From: Girardia tigrina
Taxonomy: Eukaryota
DNA: 63,283 nt
Direction of reading: 5' to 3'
NCBI GenBank assembly: GCA_001938485.1
Contig: MQRK01168947.1
Coordinates: forward strand, 1-63,283
Made by a program: the position numbers and the translations under genes. Shown here in pieces: positions 105 through 61,692 of the stretch. Positions within the stretch are counted from its first letter, which is position 1; every line of letters starts with the position of its first letter. Below the pieces are notes generated by a model. That model was given only the letters and a program-made list of their open reading frames with translations. It was not told the origin of the DNA and ran no database searches.

Positions 105-1107
105 AACCCCTCATAGGCAGCATGCGGTAGAATTTCCCATTTAAGTGCTTTCAACGTGTTGTTTACTTGTTTTGCAACATGTGGCCGAGCATTGTCATGG
201 AGCAAAATCACTGTGCACTGTTTGTTGGTTGGAATAGGACGTTTTTCCTTCTATGCATCGTTCAATTTCATTAACTGTTGTTGGTAACGTTCTGCATTAA
301 CAGTTTCATTCGAATTCAGCAGCTCATAGTACAGTACACCTTTCTGATNNNNNNNNNNNNNNNNNNNNNNNNNNNNNNNNNNNNNNNNNNNNNNNNNNNN
401 NNNNNNNNNNNNNNNNNNNNNNNNNNNNNNNNNNNNNNNNNNNNNNNNNNNNNNNNNNNNNNNNNNNNNNNNNNNNNNNNNNNNNNNNNNNNNNNNNNNN
501 NNNNNNNNNNNNNNNNNNNNNNNAATTGAATATCAGTAATCGACTTTCAATGTTGGCTTGATTCAATTCATGTGGTATCCATTTTCCTTCTTTTTGAATC
601 ATTTTCATAGCATGTAGACGTTGACTTATGGCTGCTTGAGTAGCATTTAACTGTTTTGCAAGCTCTTTCTCTGTTTGAGTATAATCTCCTTCAGTTATGA
701 TTCCAAATCTTCATCTTCGAATCTTTTTGGTTGACCGGAACTTTCTTTGTCACTTACGTCGAAATCTCCACTTTTGAAACGTTTATACCAGTTCTCGCAA
801 GTCTGTTAAGTTGGTGCATGTTGACCATAAGTTTCTTTAAGAAGCCGAAAACTGTCTGCAGCTTTTTTCTTTTGATTAAAGCAAAACAGTAGTGCTTCCC
901 GCAAATGCTGTTTTATTGGTGTGAAAGTTGACATGCTAAAACGTGATTAAAAATATGTTTATGACGCATTTAAGGTCAATGACCTACTTAATTTTAATGC
1001 CTCGATTTCAGCACTTTAAAAATCTGTACGTACGACTGTAAAATAATGCTTATTACAAAACTTACACCATCTCTTAGAAATTCCAAAAAACTAAGTTATA
1101 CACCTAA
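105..1107 (-). mobile_element. Decayed mariner, Mos1/mauritiana-like, 3' truncated
   Basis: ATG at 934: MSTFTPIKQHLREALLFCFNQ...WYKRFKSGDFDV...GKWIPHEL. Terminal TTAGGTGTATAACT next to TA; stops and frameshifts present. Confidence 0.9.
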
Positions 1108-2289
1108 TATATATATATATATATGGACAAAAAGTTTTTTCAAAAAAAGGGGCATTTTCTACTAGTTTTAATGCATTTCTGTACGTGTGATTGAATGGGA
1201 ATTTGAGCGGAGAGTACTGGTTTGTCTGAATTCACGCCAGTACAGAGAGAGGCCCAAGATTACGATGTTTACACGTCTCAGTTGTAAGGACAGATCGGGT
1301 GTACTATCAAATATCGAAATGTAAAGTATTGAGTATGACACGAGAGATCCAAGATACATCAAAGATCCTTCAGTGAATTCACTAGAGTGGGGTCAGTGAT
1401 CCTCAGTAAAGGTAAAATTTCATATACAGGTAAATTAATTATTAATGAGTGACCTGAAGATGACGGTTGATACTATATATTTAAATATATTTTTTAATGG
1501 ATGAATTTTGTTATTTATACATAAAATTTATCTTTATATATAAAATTATAGAATATTATTTTTAACAATGGTTATAATTTTTGTCGGCTGATTTTAGTTT
1601 CTTTTCATCTTTACAAAACTCATAAAGTTACTATTACCAAAGTATTGTTTTCATTATCTTTTCAAAAAAAATATTTATATTATTTATATTTTATTATTAT
1701 ATAACTGCTTTTTATAATTAAACAAGCAATTACAAAAAAGAAAAGTAAAATGTAATGTATAAAAAAACTTCTAAATAATAAAATACAAAAAAAAATATTA
1801 TTCATTTAAATATTATTATAAAAGAAAAAACATTCTTAAAGAAATAGTTTTTATCCAAAAAAAACATAGATATAAATGCAAAAATTAAATAATTTATAAA
1901 AAAAATAAATATAAAATTATTTCCTAAAACTCCATCAAACTCTACGAGAAATTAACTCAAAATTTGATCAAATAAAAACTCATTGTAAATTAATTAAAAC
2001 AAATCAGTAAAAACTATTTTAAAATTAAAATATAAATATTTTTTTTAATAAAAGAAAGAAAAGAATTTTTTATTATTTTTCAATTTCTATTGTAAATAAA
2101 AAATATTATTAATTTTCTTTGGGATTTTTTCTTGAGGCTTTAAATGAAACATTTCTTTGATTTAATATTTTTAAAAGGATAAATGTATTAGTGAATGTAA
2201 AAAAATATAAATTAAAATATTACTTCTATCAAATAGAACTAAAAATTCTGAAAATATAAAAATCTAATGTTTATTATTTGTATTTTAAG

Positions 2290-2559
2290 ATCCCCCAATT
2301 ATTCAAAACATGCTCTCCAATATAACAGTCGCGGCTCATTTGAGGAAGCAAATTCATTTGTCTTGTATTGCTACTGGAAATCCTAAACCAAAAATATTCT
2401 GGTTCAAAATCGTTTCAGGAAAGCAAGAGGTCTTGTTGACCCGGCAACCGTCGTTTAATCTTCATATACTGTCGCAAAATGATTACGGAGAATATCAATG
2501 TCACGCCGTATCTTTCGGTTTTGAAACTGCAGTGAAACGTGTTCTCGTGGGGGTTCCAG
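2290..2559 (+). CDS. Exon of Ig-superfamily cell adhesion gene (Kirre/NEPH/IrreC-like), one complete Ig domain
   Basis: Acceptor ttttaag| and donor |gtaaaa; 270 nt, phase 1-1. Encodes PPIIQ...LSCIATGNPKPKIFWFK...DYGEYQCHA, with the Ig C/W/DxGxYxC motifs. Confidence 0.93.
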
Positions 2560-4019
2560 GTAAAATAATAATTTATTATAAGTTATTTATAAATTTAACT
2601 GAAAGTAAAAGATTTGAATTTTATCAAAAGAATATTCAAATTATAAATCTAAATTTAATAACAAAAACTTAATTTAAAAAGACAAATAAAAGAAAAAATA
2701 CTCAAATTATTCTTAAAAATCCAAACGCTATGATCTTACAATTCAAAACTGATAGATCAGTCATTTCAAAAGATATGTCGGCAGTGCTAAAGTCATACTA
2801 TTATTAAGGGTACAAAAGTTGTATAATAGTTGTAATGAAAAACGAGAGCGAGTGGGTCTCTATCTTCCATTATCTAAATAAATTAATAAACACAAAAATA
2901 ATCTGCAAAATTTATTGTTTAGAATGATCAACATACGGTTGTTTCANNNNNNNNNNNNNNNNNNNNNNNNNNNNNNNNNNNNNNNNNNNNNNNNNNNNNN
3001 NNNNNNNNNNNNNNNNNNNNNNNNNNNNNNNNNNNNNNNNNNNNNNNNNNNNNNNNNNNNNNNNNNNNNNNNNNNNNNNNNNNNNNNNNNNNNNNNNNNN
3101 NNNNNNNNNNNNNNNNNNNNNNNNNNNNNNNNNNNNNNNNNNNNNNNNNNNNNNNNNNNNNNNNNNNNNNNNNNNNNNNNNNNNNNNNNNNNNNNNNNNN
3201 NNNNNNNNNNNNNNNNNNNNNNNNNNNNNNNNNNNNNNNNNNNNNNNNNNNNNNNNNNNNNNNNNNNNNNNNNNNNNNNNNNNNNNNNNNNNNNNNNNNN
3301 NNNNNNNNNNNNNNNNNNNNNNNNNNNNNNNNNNNNNNNNNNNNNNNNNNNNNNNNNNNNNNNNNNNNNNNNNNNNNNNNNNNNNNNNNNNNNNNNNNNN
3401 NNNNNNNNNNNNNNNNNNNNNNNNNNNNNNNNNNNNNNNNNNNNNNNNNNNNNNNNNNNNNNNNNNNNNNNNNNNNNNCATAGATGGACACGGCCCAACT
3501 GCAGGTTATCATAGGATCTGACATGGAACTCTCTTTATGTAAAGAAATAAATGTAAACATCTTCTGAGATTAATTTTCTAATTATTGGTTGTTGCTTCGG
3601 TGTAATCTGAGGACAATTTGTACAATTAGAACAAAGTACAGATGGTTCACCGCCGATAATCACACATTTAAAAACAACAACCGTCGGAAATCCAAGAGGA
3701 ATTAATCGGTTTGACTTTGTTATTCTTGTCAAAACAGCTCTTTTTGAATTCAAATCCACTTGAAAATTGTCNTCTACGATCCCATGAACGACGTCGAGCA
3801 TATTGTACGCGGCAGTTGACTCCAGCGAATTTAATTGAATTGATTAAATTATTAATCAATTAATTATTTAATATGTATATATATATACACACACCATTAA
3901 TATATATATACATATATACATATTTTGACTAAAATGTAGGATCACTACAATAGTATTTGTTGTACAAAAGTGCACACAACAAAAGCGGGTCGACAAACAC
4001 ATCGTCACATCACATTGAC

Positions 4020-4246
4020 TCAGTCCTTCCTCAGCTCGTACCGCATCTCTTTGACACCGTCCTTGGTGATCACCCGCATGACGAGCGCGTCCCCGCAGTG
4101 AATGTCTCTCTCGGCCGCGCTAATAATCACATCTCTCACGAATGAAATGGCCTCATCCAGCGGAATGGATGCCTTCTCGACACCAGGCTGGTTGTTCTTG
4201 TTGATCTGGTTGTCGAGGAAGGGCTGCAGGATGGCGCCAGCGCTCC
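4020..4246 (-). CDS. PSMB1: Isolated terminal exon of proteasome subunit beta type-1 (beta6); GC-rich, probably foreign
   Basis: GSAGAILQPFLDNQI...ISAAERDIHCGD...ITKDG...LRKD* is the recognisable beta6 C-terminus. Acceptor tttccag at 4247; no upstream exons recognised in the window. Confidence 0.88.
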
Positions 4247-4530
4247 CTGGAAATGGGATGGAAAACTCTCTCAAAGTTGAGGAGCAAAATAATAATAAAA
4301 TGATGATAATATTGAGAACGTATACGTCTAAGATCCGTTATTCCTAACTGTGGAGAATTAGCGGCCGAATTAACAGACTTTGTTTAACTGAACTGAAAGT
4401 CGCAGACACTTTGAGTGCGCTTGTATCGGTGATCAATAAATTTTGTTTTGTTCTTTACATTGGTTACATCACTAACGTCAACGCGCGAGAAACAAACATT
4501 AAACAATCGCACATTTAAACAATCCTCCAC

Positions 4531-7209: not shown

Positions 7210-7597
7210 NNNNNNNNNNNNNNNNNNNNNNNNNNNNNNNNNNNNNNNNNNNNNNNNNNTCATCGTCAGGTCTCAAGAAAAAAATGAATTTTAAATCTGC
7301 TTATATAGGCAAGCAGTGATTATGTCATCAATGGATTATTATGTCATCTAAACACGCTTAATAGGGTTTTCGAAAGACGCGTTTGCAGATTAATCTTAGG
7401 ATCTAAAGATCTGATATAAAGTGCTTCACAGGCCACCCTCTCCCAATAGTTTTTTTAAAAATCTTAGATCCTAAGATTAATGTGCAAACGCGTCTCTCGA
7501 AAACCCTATTAAGCGTGTTTAGATGACATAATAATCCATTGATGACATAATCACTGCTTGCCTATATAAGCAGATTTAAAATTCATTTCTTTCTTGA

Positions 7598-7636
7598 GAC
7601 CTGACGATGACAGTTATACCGTCGAAATTAATTGTC
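7598..7636 (+). ncRNA. Minimal type I hammerhead ribozyme
   Basis: gac-CTGACGA-T-GACAG ttata CCGTC-GAA-ATTAAT-T-gtc. Stem I gac/gtc, palindromic stem III, one mismatch in stem II. Confidence 0.78.
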
Positions 7637-22769: not shown

Positions 22770-23045
22770 AAAAGACGTTCTATGCTACTGCAACACGTAG
22801 TGTTCTCATTATTCTCTATTTCGAGTGTATAAGTAGGCAAGTAACCTGGTGGCGTTTATCTCATCTCCAGGTTTGGATGGCCGTTGGCTCCAAGGAGTTC
22901 ATCTGTTCTTTGCCCAGCTTTGTTTTTTATCCTGTTGAGTGTCCAAAAACCCGGTTTAGTTGCCAATATTCCGACCACGGGACAGGTAGAACAACTTTAC
23001 TTGACACCTGTTGTGGACATGCTTGCCTGACCTGATCTGACTATT
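22770..23045 (-). mobile_element. 5' end of RTE-like LINE (5' UTR and start of APE endonuclease)
   Basis: Structured GC-richer UTR, then MRTLRVAVA*NV, resembling the APE start LxIATWNV (TGG>TAG). Homologous to 41857-42040. Confidence 0.6.
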
Positions 23046-28911: not shown

Positions 28912-29240
28912 ATTAAGTTGGGGAAAAAGAAATCCATTATTTGGCGTGAAATTCAAAACTTTATTTAACATCTTTCGATTGTCCTCTTGGAGTCAAATAT
29001 GCACCATTTTGTTGTATAATTAGTTGCCAGTTTGATGGTAGCTTCATAATGCCTCTCTCGTAAAAGTCTTGGTCATTATTGGCGAAAAACTTTAGTAATC
29101 GATTTTCACAATCTTCTATTGATCCTAATTTCTTATAACTCAGGAAATTTTGCAATGCGAGAAAAAGGTGGTAATCGCTTGGTGCCAGGTCCGGACTATA
29201 TGGTGGATGCATTAAAACTTCCCAACCAAGCTCCCCGAGT
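28912..29240 (-). mobile_element. Mariner 3' end with TIR
   Basis: WEVLMHPPYSPDLAPSDYHLF...FYERGIMKLP...NGAY; terminal ttaagttggggaaaaag. Confidence 0.92.
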
Positions 29241-32200
29241 TTCATTCTTTTGTGATTCACTTTATAATGGTTTAACAAAACACAAAATAGCATAAGCAAA
29301 TAACTATAATGTTAACCTTTGGTTAATAGTAATTTAGAAATCTGCTTGACTTGTTATAGTCTTTTGTCTAAATAATTAAATAATTTAATAATTTAAATTT
29401 AATTTAATAATTTAAATTTAATTTAATAATTAATTTAATTTAATAATTAAATAATTTAAATAATTTGTCTAATTAATAATCAGCGCATTATGTTATTATT
29501 GTAAGAATGTTTGCGTATGAAGGATTTATAATTTCATTTGACCCTATAAACATTTAACTTAATATAAATTAATCAAAACATGACATGGAAATAAGTGTTT
29601 GCGATGCACTGATTTCCTAATATTTTCATTTGTACAATGAACTTTTATGTGTTTTGTTTAAAGATTTACAAAATATATTTTATGGAGGGGTCTTTGGTTG
29701 TCTCCTCCATATTATGTGAGATCCCTGAAAGAGATTGCGGATCCACTGAGATTGCATTAAAATTAACCTGTTTATACCCGAGTTTAAGGGCTGTATGCGG
29801 ACGCTAGTATTTATGGGGCTGCCCGCCACCCGAGTGCCATTCGATATTCCGAGATTGGTCTTAATTTCAACTAGACCGCTGAAAATTGCACCAAACATAT
29901 CACCGTTTGACTGTGATCATATTGTATTGTTGAACTGAAAATTTTGTTGATTGTCTTGAGGTAGTAAATCAAAACTCGTCAAGGTAAAATCAGAATTTAA
30001 TTTTCATTATTGAAATTCCACCAAAATTATTGATAACATTCTTATTCTATTCTATATAGAAAATATTCGTTTCTATATAGAATCTATCAGTTTTTATATA
30101 GAAATGTAAAGTAATTTAGTTAAATCGATTTATAATGAAAAAGATGATTTTTGACCGCAGAGCAATGTAACAAATATTAAGTATTGATTAATACTGAAAA
30201 CGTAGGAAATAAAATAATTTAGCTACCATAAAACTCTTATTGAAAAATTGGACTGAAAGAAAGCAGTGTGAAAGTCTCCTTTTAATGGGATAGAATGACC
30301 AAAAAATAGAATTAAGCTTTATTTGATTGTCTTAGAAGACTCAAATGACAACAATTGTAAAAAAGGAACAAGCATATCGTGTGGGTCAAGGTATTATGTT
30401 AAATTGTAGCTATTGCCTTTGAGAAAAAAAATAAAAATTAATAGAATTTAATTTTAAAATAATATTGTAATGTGCCTTTCTTAAACCCTTCTTACATATA
30501 TTACATATGTATATTTATTTATATTTATCAAATCAATCCAAAATTATCCATACTGTAAACCACTTTATCCTTACTGGTGACAATTATTTTGAAAATAACA
30601 AGTCTTATTATTTCTAATATATAAATATATAAGTAACATTAATATAATAAGTATAATTTATCATAACACTTAAATTTCTTATATGATAATACAAGTAAAA
30701 ATTCAAATTATTTTTGGTTATTATTCGTGAGAATACTTTTCTTTCTTCTCAAATATCTCAAAATTTCGTGTTTCATTTTTAACCAGAGTCAAGTATCAAT
30801 AAATAGACTCTATAAAAGACAGGTCAAAGAAACTCAACAAGAAGATAATCAATAAAATTTATTGTAATCATTGGACAGATTACCTGAGACATTTATTTTA
30901 GATTTTTAATATGTTTATTACTGATTAATGTTATTGTTCTTTTTAGTTTTGACTCAAGTGTTAGGGTCAACCGGGCTCAGAGGGAAGTGACCCATTTGGA
31001 GAAATATATTGCCATTTTTAGAGACTCCCTCTCTCTCCTCTTCCATAGTCAACAAGAAAATTGAATCAAAATCTTTGTTCGAATAAAATCATGCTCACTA
31101 TTCTCGACCTAGTCCATATGAATCTGATAGAACAATTGAAATACATCGCATATTTCATGTGTTGCGTTTGACAAAATCGATCATTAATTAACAATCAAAT
31201 TGACTTTTTTTAGTTAACAAAAAAGTATCAACTCCAAATTCGAAATAAAATCAGATTGGTCTGTATTTTAGTCTTCCTATTAATTTTATATTGTAAATCA
31301 TCATCAGAATCAATCAGCAAACTTGATTCACTTGTACAAGACAAATCAAGTTCCATTTGTTTATATCAAATGGCTCGGAGCGTATTTAGTTTATTTCTTA
31401 ATCACAAAACACGAATGCACGGAAATTCAAATTTTATTTCTTTAACAACCAAACAAAACACACGTCGTTAAGCAACGATTTAGTCAAACAAATTGCAAAG
31501 ATTTTTTTTAAATCACAAAAAAAGTTAATCTTTTAATACAAAAAAATTTTAAAATTGAAAAGTAATTTTCTCTTTCACATTTTTTTTAATTTTCCATTTT
31601 AAAAATTTTTAATTTCTACATAAATCCTTTTCGAAAGATTTTTTTGAGAAATCAATTTTTTTTATTATTCAATTTGGAATAATTATTAAATTAAATTATT
31701 CTTATTCTATTGATATTTATATTTTATTAGTTGAGCTAAGTTCAACAATTAATATTATTTGTTAGCTTTTTTAAAATGTAATATGTAGTAAAAAAATAAA
31801 TAGTTCTTAGAAAATTAATTTTATGTGATGATTATGAATTTTTCTTGAAGAACATTAAAACTTTTACATGTTCTTCTTAATCACAAAACAATTTTTACAT
31901 TTTTTAGGATTCCAAGAACGAGATATTAAGTTTAAATTATAATTGTAACCGTCCCCTGGTTGTTTATAATCTTTTAACAAATAGGAAACACGAACAGAAG
32001 TTAACAGTAAAATACTATAGATTTAAATAATTATTAATCATAAAATAATGATTTATCCAAGGTAATTATGATAAACATTAATGAGAACAAAAGATTTGAT
32101 TGAGGTTCATTCAAATATTTTTCATGTAATAATATCTTTTTTCTTTCTTTAAACTATTGTTTTAGATGAGAATACAAAATTTATTTACAGAAAGTTATTA

Positions 32201-32998: not shown

Positions 32999-33003
<5 letters not shown>

Positions 33004-33167
33004 AAAAATAATACCATTTTAATTTTAAATTTTTATTTGAAAACATGTTTCGCCACTTTTGTGGCATCTTCAGTTCTGTAATAATCACAGAACTGAAGAT
33101 GCCACAAAAGTGGTGAAACATGTTTTCAAATAAAAATTTAAAATTAAAATGGTGTTATTTTTGTTTA
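32999..33167. repeat. Palindrome of about 170 bp made of two divergent PLE hammerheads, bordered by (TA)n
   Basis: Arms are reverse complements around position ~33083. Each reads gaa-CTGAAGA-T-GCCAC aaaa GTGG(C/T)-GAA-ACATGT-T-ttc. Confidence 0.9.
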
Positions 33168-40092: not shown

Positions 40093-41742
40093 GTGAGTTT
40101 TACTTGAGTTTCTAAATTATAATAATTATTATTTATTTATTTTTCTAACCTCACAGATTTTTTTAAAATAATGCTATCATGTTTTCACACATATAACCCA
40201 CGGTTCATGTGTGATTTTATCTACGCCGCAAACCACTGGTTTAGTAAAAAAAATGGGGTATACTAAAATTATTTTACTCGAGAAAAACTAACAATTCACT
40301 ATGATAACCAACGGGTAATGTGTGATTTTAAATTATCCAAATGCCTCTTGCGAAGAAAACCTTGTGCTGGTTATATGCTTGAAAATATGGTACTTTAATT
40401 GGTGAGAGAAAATTGTTAATAAGATGAATTGACGAAGATTGGAGGATGTTAGAAAAAAACTTATGTTATCTGTTAGGAATTAAGAAATGTTAGTAAAATT
40501 TTTGATATTATGGTAAATTAAATATATACAAACTAAAATTTAGATATATTAAAATATGTAAAGTTTGTAAAATAAATTTTAAAAATTAATAAGATCTAAT
40601 TAAATATTTAAGAATTAAGAAATTTTTAAAATAAAATATACGTATCAAAATGTAGAAATTTTTAAATGTATAATGGTTTTTAGAAATTAATAAAATTAAA
40701 TTAATGAAATTAAATTAATTAAATTTAAGAATGAGAAAATTTATTAAAGACAAAATTTTTAAAATTAAAATAAAATCAAATATTAATATTATAATTATTT
40801 TTATTTATACCGGTATAAGATTTATCAAACACATTGTTTCTCAAAAAAGAAGTTTGTTTAAGTTTTAGTTTTAAACACATTTTGTATTATAATAAAGTTT
40901 GAATGTCGGAAATAACTTTTAACCATAATTCCGTGGATGTTCCAAGAACATTTAACATTAACATTGTAAAAAATAAATTCCTTCTGCAACTTAATATATT
41001 CCAAAAAAAACATTAATATTTATTTATCTTATAACTGATAATAGATTTTAATTTCATTAAATTTCAATTAAAATACAAAAATTGAAAAATTTAAATTTTT
41101 AGTTGTATATTTTTTAAACTGAGAAATATAAATAAGATTTTTTTTCATTTTATATAATTTAAATAACATTATTTTTTCTTATGTTATAAGAGAAAGAAAA
41201 TTCCGGAAAGAAAAGAGATATTTTACTTGAAAATTTTATTTATCATAAAAGAAATATAAAATAATTCTGTAAGTTAATATAATATATATTTTTAATAATT
41301 TTGTATATAATTTGCTATTGTGAAATAATTTATATAAATCACAAAAAATAATGATAATAACTATTATTATTATTTTGTTATATTATTATCATCATCATTA
41401 TTATTATTATCTTCATTATTATTGACAAAAAAATTAATTAATTTTGATACAAATTGAGAGGTTGTCTTTTGTTGTTAATTAAATGTAATATAATTGGTAA
41501 ATATTATGAAGAACAAAAATGAAAATAGAATAAATAAAATTTATTTTACTTTCAAATGATGTATAAATAAATTATTAAAATAATTTTCAATTTAATTCAT
41601 TATTTTATTTAATTTAATTGATTAATCAAACCAGTGCTAGCACGTGCGTTACGGTGGGATTTTGTATATGATCTCGACCTCAGTGTCACAAGACTGGACC
41701 CATATTTTTGAATTTATTTAAATATGTGTAGGACAGAGTGTA

Positions 41743-42128
41743 GTCAATGGCCGCAGTTGGGTCGCCGCATCTTTTCCGATTTCCGAAATCAAGCAACTAA
41801 CGGCCGCGTTAGTATTTATATGGGTGACCGATAGGGAAATCATGGGGTCGTTGACTATAGACAAGCTGTCTGCTGCAGGTATCATGTAAACTGTAATACC
41901 TGTTCCATGGTCGAATGGATGGCGACTAAACCGGCTCCTTCACCTAGAGTAACCTTGGTGAAGAGGTGTCTGGACACCTTGGAGCCAACGGCCATCCATG
42001 CCTGTAGAGTAGATAGGCGCCACCAGGTTCCTTGCCTACTGACACATTTCTAAATTTGCAAAACCAAGCCAGTATGCTTGTGCATAATTGAGTACACCCA
42101 CGGCCCAACGGTTGCGGTATCAAAAAAA
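41743..42128 (+). mobile_element. 5S rRNA-derived SINE (SINE3-type) with RTE-related body and A tail
   Basis: Head 41743-41856: helix I gtcaatggcc/ggtcgttgac, A-box-like aatcaagc, gttagta, C-box atgggtgacc. Body homologous to 22830-23030(-). Ends in caaaaaaa. Confidence 0.8.
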
Positions 42129-42348
42129 GGACAGTGAATGAATTATTAAAATATTGCTGAGAATGGATTGATATAAATAATTCCATCGTTTAGTCCATGT
42201 TACTTGATCAACATCTCCACAAATGATATTTAAGTCATTAACATTGCGAGAAGATATCGGGAAATTATTAAATTATCCTTTTTTTTCTACATTTTTCTTA
42301 ATCAAAACACATTTTGAATCTGTAATCTTCTTCTCGATATTATTTTTA

Positions 42349-42499
42349 CCCTAATTTACTGCGGATAACCAACGGGTAATACGGTGGAAAAATTCGACTT
42401 TTCGAAAAATTTATGGGTGCAGGTTTTATACTAATCTTGATTTTCAAAAGTAGTTAATGACCAAACATTGAGATACGGGTTATCCGCAGTAAATTGAGG
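42349..42499. mobile_element. pogo/Tc2-like MITE
   Basis: TIR ccctaatttactgcggataacc / ggttatccgcagtaaattgagg with TA on both sides. Confidence 0.8.
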
Positions 42500-42749
42500 T
42501 ATTATTCAAACGATCAATTATCGTTAGAAATCCATAGATTGATAATTTCACTTTCTTTTCTAAAATAATCGGATTTAGTACATTATATAAACAAATTGGA
42601 GTTTTTTTTATTTTTCAATAACCGTTTTTTATCATATTTAATTTTTTTTCTGTCTATATACAAAAGTAATAAAAAATTAACAAATTGCTTTTAAAATAAC
42701 TTTTGACATAAGAGATGAAAGAGAGAAGATATCAACTTAGATGTAAATA

Positions 42750-43170
42750 TCTATTTTTATGACAATTAATTTCGACTGTAACACATTTTGGATTTTATAT
42801 GTTTGTGATATTATTTTGTGATACGAGGTATTTTGTAATAAATCTCCAACCCCATTTGGATTATTTTCATTCTCGTTTATAAATTTACATTTAATGAGTG
42901 TAATGCTACATACATTGGAGAAGCGTCCCGTCATCTGTGAAGGAAAATCTAAGAAGACGGTCGGAATGTAGGTGGGATTAATATTGCAGAACACAGAAAG
43001 AGTTTTGATTCAAACAAAAATATAAACATAAATGATTTTCAAATTCTGTGAACTCATTTTAAGAACTATTGGGAGAGGGTTGTCTGAGAAACACTATATC
43101 AGATCTTTAGATCCTAAGAATAATGTTCAAACGGGTCTTTCAAAATCCCTATTGATCGTGTTTAGATTGT
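42750..43170 (+). mobile_element. PLE GIY-YIG domain with inverted pLTR fragment at the 5' end
   Basis: LVYKFTFNECNATYIGEASRHL...YIRSLDPKNNVQ. Truncated minus-strand hammerhead tail (gacaattaatttcgac) near 42761; same family as 7133-7675. Confidence 0.85.
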
Positions 43171-49094: not shown

Positions 49095-50503
49095 AAAACG
49101 ACATATTCAAGACTTTAAAAAATTTATCTATACAATAATTTTATTTACTTGAAGAAAAAATAAATATAAATATAAACTTACATATTGTAATGATTTTGGA
49201 AATCATTACAATATATAAGTTTATATTTATATTTATTTTTTCTTATTCAATGTTTTAAAGCATAATGCGGCAATTAAGCAAGGAAGAACGAATATTTGGG
49301 TGCAATATTATCAATTATCAATTATCATTTGAATTGGAAAGGTAACCCGATATCAATATGTTATGTCTTCGATTTTATCGTCATTTCCAAAAAATAGCGC
49401 CTACTGTTAGAAAAATTCATTTATTGATATAAAAGTTTCAAGCAACTGGATGTGTTACTAACTGTAATAAGGGGAGAAATCGTCCTCCGAAAACTGTAGG
49501 AACAGGTGATAACATGAGTTTGGCAAAGCGTCACTTCATTCCACGTCCGATTACTAGCATCAGACAAGCGGCCTCCCACCTAAAAATTAACAAGTCGTAC
49601 TTAAACAGATTACTTAAATCTAATCAGATATGTCCATACGGAACTCAAACTGTGTTTAAGTTGAATGAAAATGATTTTGAAGAATTTATTGAATTTCGTA
49701 GCCCTACATTGCGTATGACACAAGAGAACTCACAATTTCTGGTTAACTTATGGATGTCGATAGTCCACTTCTATGTTTTCAGAATACATTAACAACAAAA
49801 TATGAGATTTTAAGGCTCCACCATGCATATAACAAATTATGTGCAAAAATCGTTGAAATCTACTTTTGTTACTAGATGGGTAGCTACCACTAAACATGGA
49901 TTGATTGTCGCCTATTTTTATGAGAATGCTAGTAGACAACATGTTTCTGTTGCATCATTTCGTTCTGACGAAATGATAAATAATTTTTTGTATACCAAAT
50001 CGGATTAACTTTCCCGGTGTTCACATGAACCATCAATGGTTTCACTAAGATGGCGCACCCTCGCGTACCGCTCAAGTCAGAATGCAATGTCTAAATTATC
50101 ATTTTCAACATCACCTTATTTTAAAGCGTTCCAACTTCATTTGACCAGCGTGATCGACTGGTTTAAGTAACATAGTCTTTTTCCTCTGGGAATTCTTAAA
50201 GAATCGAATTTGTAAAAAAACTATTGTAACTACCATTGTTTTCAAAGATTAAATAAGAACTGAACTAACCAATATTGACCAAAAGATTATAAACTCTGCT
50301 TTTATAAGCTTCAGAAGACATCTACAGGAATGCTCTTTCAATGGAGTCCATCATATTCAAAACACATTTCACCATCTTCCTAATGCCTGTTCATTTCCGT
50401 TGAATCATTACAATATGTAAATTGGAATCCTATGTTTGATTTTTTCCAAGTAAATAAAAGTATTGTATAGATAGATTTTTTTAAGTCTTGAATATGTCGT
50501 TTT
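49095..50503 (+). mobile_element. DUF4817/rosa-like Tc1 element with TIRs of about 105 bp
   Basis: aaaacgacatattcaagactt...catattgtaatgatt is mirrored at 50403-50503. KFQATGCV, SIRQAASHL, WFH*DGAPSR, FFLWEFLK. Confidence 0.8.
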
Positions 50504-60372: not shown

Positions 60373-61692
60373 TAAGGTGTGTCCACTAAAAAAGTGCACA
60401 GGTTTTAAAACCATCAGAACTTTTTAATTAGACCTTCAAATTGACGGAAATCTGAACAAAGACTAGATCATAATAACACAATAACTATTTTATTATATCA
60501 AACTATTAAGGCCATAAGAGTTAGCAAGCATTATTCTTTGTCTAAAATTTGCAAATAATGTCCTAACATATAAATTGTTAAACTGCTTTGCTTTAGTTTT
60601 GATTCTGCGAATCAACTGGTCTTCAGAATCAGCAATCCAACCCTTTTCATAAACCTTCTCCTTTAAATGAGCCCAAAACTTTTCAGTTGGGCGTATTTGG
60701 GGAGCACAAGGTGGATTCGAAGCTTTTTTGACAAATGAAATTTTCTTGTCCTCTAAGCACTTCAGACTTGCTTTGGCATAGTGACAAGAAGTAAGATCTG
60801 GCCAGAAGATGAAGTGACCAGCTGGGTATTTCTCATTCAGATAAGGAAGCAAACGCTTCGTTAAGCACTTGGAGATATAAGTATCCGAATTAGAAGCTAC
60901 AGATTTCCATTTCCTGATGTACAGGTTTGAAATGCCTCATCTGGAAACAGTTTCCCAAACCAAAACTTTTACTGTGAATTTCTCTCAAAATTTAAGGCGA
61001 ATATTATCAGGTACATCACCGAACTTCTTTTGGTCCACATAATAACCCGATGTCATTGCTCCGGTGAGTGTAAAATACTACTCATCATCAAGTACAAAGT
61101 CTGTTTTGGTCTTTTCCACAACAATTTTAGCGAGATTTTGCAACCTGGCTTTCTGGGGAATAATCTGTGTCGGAGTAACCTTTGGGGCTTCTTTCCTCTT
61201 TCGAAACACTATGTTATTAGTCTTGAACATCTTATGCACGTAAGACTTTGAAACATTCATTTCTCTACCTAACTTTCTCACACTTTGTCTAACAGTCAAA
61301 GTTGCACGCTGCAGAAGTCTCTTCCTTTTGTCTGACGTCATTTTAACAGGTTTCTTTCCACTTCCTACTTTTCTTTCAATGCTGCCGGTCTTCTCATAGC
61401 GTTGTAATATTGCATATATACCTCTTCTGGAAAAATGAATACCAGTAAACTTTGTCACAGTCTCATTTTTACTGTGCGTTTTGAAAAAAAATGATTATAT
61501 CTTCATGTCGTTTTGAAATCATTATAATTGTCTCTAAAATAAAACATATTAAACCAAAAATTTTAAATACCTGCTTTACTATTTCTAACCTATTAAAACA
61601 AATATTTAAATTCCAAATTTACGAAATTAAATAATATTACATTAAAAAGTTATGATGGTTTTAAAACTTGTGCACTTTTTTAGTGCACCTTA
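60373..61692 (-). mobile_element. Tc1-like DD37E (TRT-type) element, near full length
   Basis: TIRs of about 40 bp containing cactaaaaaagtgcaca.gttttaaaaccatca. VLDDE, FWPDLTSCHY, NPPCAPQIRPTE. Confidence 0.9.

Follow-up and report, generated by a model that had tools for sequence, protein, structure and literature searches.

The window analysed here is a stretch of 63,283 nucleotides of planarian DNA, and its forward strand carries one copy of a short interspersed element (SINE) of composite structure. The copy begins with a short extension 5′ of the 5S +1 position (41739..41742), which is paired in the predicted fold, lengthening the terminal helix, and which matches the common start of full-length copies of the family, (A/T)GTA or TA. 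The extension is followed by a 5S rRNA-derived head (41743..41856), by a body corresponding to the 5′ UTR and first codons of an RTE LINE (41857..42071; LINE nucleotides 1–268) and by a tail corresponding to the last ~50 nucleotides of the same LINE, that is, the end of its open reading frame (ORF) and a very short 3′ UTR (42074..42121). A run of seven A (42122..42128) closes the element, where the LINE instead ends in AAAAGAAGAAG; the distinct 3′ segment and the A-run of the original prediction are both present.

The copy is flanked by a 9-bp target site duplication (TSD), AGGACAGAG at 41730..41738 and, with one mismatch, AGGACAGTG at 42128..42136. This placement is chosen because both copies carry G where the empty paralogues have A, and it sets the start of the SINE at 41739, four bases 5′ of the start first proposed (41743). 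The flanking repeat suggested earlier as a possible TSD is therefore present, although its length (9 bp) and the start of the element had to be revised. The insertion lies in a low-copy repeat (window ~41600–41729 and 42137–42250), whose right-hand part has 39 matches. Of 19 paralogues fetched, 13 are distinct, and all 13 represent an empty site, with the left flank directly joined to the right flank through one target copy. Upstream of the insertion, TTT at −13..−11 and T at −1 conform to the Tn-TA pattern of RTE elements. Flank-to-flank joints and a sharp depth step over 41740–42129 also appear in one further study, in contigs from two DNA runs; these joints do not amount to independent support because one of the runs may be the source sample.

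The head (41743–41856) matches the Rfam 5S rRNA family RF00001 over model positions 1–120 with 42.2 bits (gathering threshold 38, E = 6.9e-7), and it can be aligned to the host 5S gene L062. No other Rfam family was detected in 41000–43000 at E ≤ 1. The expected pairing into 5S helix I is borne out by the fold of 41739–41860, which contains a 14-bp terminal helix (z = −3.72, with 0 of 200 shuffled sequences as good). Also present are the anticipated type-1 Pol III promoter-like stretches at 41787..41798 and 41817..41834, which we take to be box A and box C, respectively, from the names and positions used in the 5S promoter literature. The window copy has the 4-nt deletion near +10 that is typical of the family and is without a terminator at the end of its head. 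Within the head, the window copy alone has gained a TTTT at 41772..41775, which is not in the column majority of the sampled copies and is predicted to act as a premature Pol III stop. Alignment shows two deletions in the body, of ~10 nt at its start and of 44 nt after 41978, and the copy differs from the SINE column majority by 11.3%, compared with a family median of 6.2% (70 copies). Its 11% divergence, its two deletions and its internal TTTT make it likely that this copy is dead.

The SINE is a short (~440 nt), non-coding, interspersed multicopy element with common ends. Among the best 40 of 3202 first-look candidates from a genome search with the element, 28 of 40 non-self rows span the query from position ≤8 to position ≥369. 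The aligned copies start with (A/T)GTAGTC or TAGTC and end with GGTACC and about seven A. A 22-mer from the tail has 432 exact matches in the genome, compared with none for the reversed control. As 9 of the 24 distinct copies from the whole-element search contain this 22-mer unchanged, a rough estimate is 1,150 tail-bearing copies; the number is better read as about a thousand because the assembly contains duplicates (14 of 90 sampled loci). These 90 loci, out of the 432 tail matches, comprise the 30 returned and 60 of the other 70 listed, 10 being left out as near contig ends, duplicated or already sampled. Of the 76 distinct loci, 2 are LINE 3′ ends.

The sampled copies bear the marks of retrotransposition: a TSD, a simple 3′ tail, 5′ truncation and, at the window locus, an empty site. 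A TSD of at least 9 nt with at most one mismatch was found in 31 of 60 testable copies, compared with a mean of 3.6 and a maximum of 8 in 60 shuffled pairings, and the target duplications are ~10 bp long. TTT occurs 7–13 nt upstream of the TSD in 18 of the 31 copies (18% background), and T directly precedes it in 74% of the 31, with A excluded at that position by construction. Such a Tn-TA signature has been described for LINEs of the RTE clade and for their SINEs (PMC13295347). The copy number, common ends and TSDs sought by genome search were thus obtained. The 5′ flank could be used in 71 copies, which comprise 26 full-length and 45 truncated ones. The full-length copies carry the same modified head, with the 4-nt deletion, the same substitutions and the same junction. 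Two DNA runs of one organism contain the family; one DNA run of a second organism, of which about 1 in 100 was read, contained nothing on the element, a sample too thin to establish absence.

Comparison with the 5S genes of the host shows what the head has retained and lost. The host genes score 100–108 bits against RF00001 and have a T run at their end; a second, clearly divergent 5S rRNA type (91–100 bits; L067, L069, L071) occurs beside this main type. The majority head of the SINE is identical to L062 at 104 of 119 positions, the differences being the 4-nt deletion near +10 and 11 substitutions. They are fewer in +50..+97 (3 of 48 positions) than elsewhere (12 of 71), but not significantly so (p = 0.10 by Fisher's exact test), and individual copies show even conservation over the whole head. 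The terminal T run of the 5S gene is replaced by ACAG, and the family majority contains no TTTT. Judged from sequence, the type-1 Pol III promoter boxes are kept in the family and the 5S terminator is lost. The SINE is therefore likely to be transcribed by RNA polymerase III from its 5S head, and with the terminator gone the polymerase would read to the SINE end.

The body and tail derive from a LINE that is found elsewhere in the genome. The original prediction placed this partner in the window itself, at 22.8–23.0 kb on the reverse strand. The sequence blocks said to be common to that region and the SINE do exist: self-comparison of the window found a common block at 22826–22901, and alignment extends it over about 220 nt. 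A genome search with this fragment yielded mostly SINE copies and two elements that run on into an endonuclease ORF. In most of 24 distinct copies of the family to which these belong, the 5′ end is sharply defined; the 5′ ends differ from their majority by 4.6%. Three of 12 copies fetched are complete at both ends, with lengths of 3320, 3232 and, after an internal deletion, 1252 nt; all three are broken, and no unbroken ORF was found among the 12. Pfam identified APE and RVT_1 (reverse transcriptase, RT) domains. Among the matches listed, the closest intact proteins are single ORFs of 950–1030 aa with APE and RT only, and one relative of 1027 aa aligns over LINE nucleotides 274 to 3207; none of the 120 listed bears a clade label. 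A few bases past its stop codon, the LINE terminates in an AAG repeat.

Positions 120–385 of the SINE majority correspond to positions 1–268 of one such LINE (L146) with 84.7% identity, and positions 387–438 correspond to positions 3175–3224 with 84.6%. The tail of the window copy, whose comparison with LINE 3′ ends had been suggested as a check, matches at 80%. Between the body and tail matches to this one natural copy only 1 nt is unaccounted for. By these alignments the middle of the SINE comes from the LINE 5′ UTR and its tail from the LINE 3′ end, which makes it a bipartite RTE-derived SINE. RTE LINEs are about 3.2 kb long and are not known to encode RNase H. The RTE clade has been described as having a single ORF with APE and RT and no ORF1 (PMC13295347). 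We classify the partner LINE as RTE-type from its sequence anatomy, including the short 3′ end with its microsatellite, and from the insertion signature, the latter measured on SINE copies (18 of 31) and not on LINE copies. Since the tails differ (oligo-A in the SINE, an AAG repeat in the LINE) and the SINE and LINE differ by 15%, an older sister subfamily may have been the actual donor. The similar divergences of the SINE and LINE copies (6.2% and 4.6%) suggest that the two were active over similar periods. Two loci, L081 and L145, are copies of the partner LINE in which an internal part is deleted and both ends are kept.

The fragment in the window (22819..23039, reverse strand) is a poorer match to the SINE. 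It is 72% identical to the SINE majority, compared with 85% for the full-length LINE at both ends, and for this and the reasons below it was rejected as the partner; its identity to L146 is 74–82%. Nor does it run into an APE-like ORF start, as had been proposed: the frame reads MRTLRVAVA*NVFYI*LK*, which may contain an eroded TWNV motif, DNA similarity to the full-length LINE ends at 22819, and two intact related proteins, compared with the window by tblastn, gave no match at E ≤ 1. A 26-mer from the fragment, allowing up to 2 mismatches, matched nothing but its own site and a single copy of the main LINE family, so that no close family was found, and in a tree the fragment groups with the LINEs at 96/81. 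From these comparisons we regard it as a solitary, diverged and old 5′ remnant of a related RTE. Its position 19 kb from the SINE is likely a matter of chance in a repeat-rich genome.

Several other features of the window were observed. An exon-like frame at 4020–4337 on the reverse strand resembles proteasome subunit beta type-1, with matches 45–60% identical across animals, and is possibly a gene piece or a retrocopy. Long inverted repeats at 7260–7610, 32999–33167 and 49152–49244 are probably MITE-like, and transposase-like fragments were recognised by eye at 324–710, 28961–29311 and 60493–61494.

We consider it highly probable that the element in the window belongs to a multicopy SINE family composed of a 5S head and the first ~268 and last ~50 bases of an RTE LINE, likely transcribed by Pol III and mobilised by the LINE. 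The proposal that this flatworm element is a SINE3 whose bipartite body derives from an RTE is upheld by the RF00001 match, the dispersed copies, their TSDs, the empty sites and the matches to both LINE ends. That the host is a triclad is seen from a COX1 segment of the assembly, for which the closest named relatives are Bipalium (82%), Obama (78%), Platydemus, Arthurdendyus and Bdellocephala; the COX1 pieces contain frameshifts and may be nuclear copies, but the placement at the level of the order is unaffected. Copying into new sites is likely performed by the endonuclease and reverse transcriptase of the LINE. Once Pol III had read through the SINE, whose 5S terminator is gone, the LINE protein would bind the 3′ end common to SINE and LINE and would start priming at a nick that lies some 10 bp 3′ of a run of T. 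The family itself could have originated by a template switch joining 5S RNA to an internally deleted RTE. Both proposed intermediates do form in this genome, as the deleted LINEs L081 and L145 and the 5S fusions described below exist.

These fusions involve a different group of elements. At least 3 high-copy subfamilies in the genome (the G000 group, with 711 exact matches; L275–L304) are headed by a compact HDV-like core without P4. Most copies start at or near the first P1 base, and the ribozyme activity is putative. Near-intact 5S genes are fused to the 5′ ends of HDV-core elements at L082 (C193932), L083 (C46968) and L084 (C224179), that is, in 3 of the 20 RF00001 matches listed; at L083 the element runs by eye into an endonuclease-like ORF, for which Pfam gave no match. 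The fusions are likely template-switch chimeras, a type of event able to found a SINE3. Targeting of 5S genes by the HDV-core elements was rejected, as a 5S sequence lies upstream in 0 of 30 other copies. Ten of the 30 copies (L276, L277, L281, L284, L287, L293, L296, L301, L303 and L304) occupy the same site of another repeat, whose frame ...CHGCQNLYIGE we take to be the GIY-YIG motif of a Penelope-like element. It is possible that the HDV-core elements prefer the endonuclease codons of another retroelement as their target.

The truncated SINE copies are not uniformly distributed in their start positions. Ten of the 45 start at +114..+119, the junction of head and body, with further clusters of 6 at +313..316 and 4 at +244..246; of six start positions assigned by eye, two belong to the junction cluster. 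None of 5000 uniform simulations reached 10 starts within 6 nt (95th percentile 5). We infer that stalling of the reverse transcriptase at 5S helix I is a likelier explanation of the junction cluster than cleavage of the RNA. It is the simpler account because the terminal helix of the head ends at about +117 in the local fold, a pairing not favoured in the whole-length fold. Stalling is also favoured by the other two clusters, as +244–246 and +313–316 lie at or beside predicted stems.

The competing explanation is that the SINE keeps a non-canonical self-cleaving RNA derived from the RTE 5′ end, which would cut its own Pol III transcript near the head/body junction and thereby generate headless copies. 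Kojima proposed that RTE ribozymes would cut the heads off SINEs and so truncate them at the 5′ end (PMC5786205). An HDV-like skeleton was indeed found with a relaxed descriptor in 6 of 24 LINE and 5 of 29 SINE copies, compared with 1 of 4800 shuffled sequences, but the descriptor was relaxed after the sequence had been seen. The strict descriptor matched 0 of 24 LINE and 0 of 29 SINE copies (of 3 examples that look canonical it recovered just 1), and the window copy is fitted by neither descriptor. Moreover, the predicted cut falls 9 nt inside the LINE, whose copies keep those 9 nt, and the headless SINE copies start even further upstream. In the separate, canonical HDV-core group, by comparison, most 5′ ends coincide with the first P1 base or lie a few bases from it. 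A metagenome pattern scan for homologous 5′ UTRs, in which covariation of the putative ribozyme might be seen, returned none, and the 4 inspected of 8 related loci fetched match either nothing or no more than the 3′ portion of this 5′ UTR. Twister and hammerhead folds were compared by eye with consensus structures and dropped; Rfam gave RF00001 alone in 41000–43000 at E ≤ 1. We consider self-cleavage unlikely. If true, one source gene would yield both promoter-bearing copies and promoterless dead ones, making the SINE self-limiting, and the family would be a natural test of whether LINE ribozymes restrict the 5′ UTR pieces that SINEs can keep.

The same junction cluster, in excess of all 5000 simulations, could also arise if the amplifying unit were a headless, bipartite, non-autonomous RTE, expressed by Pol II or by read-through, and the 5S head were a passenger or had been repeatedly added by template switching. 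The headless copies carry their own TSDs, the body keeps the whole 5′ UTR of the LINE, and 5S-to-LINE fusions do exist in the genome. However, repeated capture of host 5S sequences would not give 26 of 71 copies that are full length with the same modified head. Furthermore, the headless copies form no clade (8 label changes compared with a shuffled mean of 9.2, in a mostly unresolved tree) and show both tail variants found in headed copies. A headless amplifying unit is thus very improbable. The genome is rich in dispersed 5S copies as well as in RTE fragments, but their juxtaposition by chance has practically no likelihood, being refuted by the linkage of head, body and tail in dozens of unlinked copies, each within one TSD, by paralogous sites empty of the whole unit and by the common ends.

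The architecture of this SINE3 with an RTE-derived body is not without precedent. CoeSINE5, SINE-1_Pmo and HaSE3 have been described as 5S heads on RTE-derived parts, and flatworms go unmentioned in the portions of that paper drawn on here (PMC5786205). CoeSINE5 of the coelacanth and SINE-1_Pmo of the python resemble the planarian element in combining a 5S head, a piece of RTE 5′ UTR and an RTE 3′ end; CoeSINE5 differs in its length of 225 nt and in having an internal UTR piece of ~50 nt (RTE-2_MMa 115–166) (PMC5786205). The planarian SINE (~440 nt) carries instead the whole UTR from base 1, and, compared by description, it is probably independent in origin from CoeSINE5 and SINE-1_Pmo. HaSE3 of Helicoverpa armigera likewise has a 5S head, an RTE middle, an RTE-shared tail and a partner RTE in the same genome, but there the 5S head is described as having replaced that of a tRNA SINE (HaSE1), and an additional body is present (PMC3272025, PMC5786205). 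In the planarian SINE the head and the two LINE ends cover all but about 5 nt. Ped-1 is a BovB-derived rodent element with a 5S head. It belongs to the springhare and, compared by description, is similar in being listed as bipartite-RTE (PMC5786205); PMC3272025 refers to a 5S SINE from the springhare. A precedent for keeping the extreme 5′ end is the horse SINE2-1_EC, which retains the RTE from base 1 (RTE-1_OAf 1–221) together with the 3′ end, but has a tRNA head (PMC5786205).

In planarians, expansions of SINE/5S alongside LINE/RTE have been reported from automatic annotation of Dugesia genomes, where the main text gives the class label only, with structure, partner and TSD absent (bioRxiv 10.64898/2025.12.11.693146, 2026 preprint). 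The original view of the family as undescribed thus holds in one respect: no description of the planarian SINE family or of its pairing with the LINE was found in the literature, Repbase and Dfam lying outside the search. It does not hold for the architecture (PMC5786205) or for the class-level report in Dugesia (10.64898/2025.12.11.693146). Fish, reptiles, rodents and moths already provide cases of a 5S head on a bipartite RTE body, and the planarian family adds one more example, not a new kind of element.

The accepted view of SINE function is unchanged by this family. Its interest lies in providing a fully resolved SINE3/RTE pair in a planarian, where the literature search gave just a class-level label, and in extending the combination of 5S head and bipartite RTE to another phylum, probably by independent origin. 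The Tn-TA insertion signature is likewise extended to a flatworm element, and the plausible intermediates found in the same genome, deleted RTEs and 5S sequences fused to element 5′ ends, are useful for studying the birth of SINEs.
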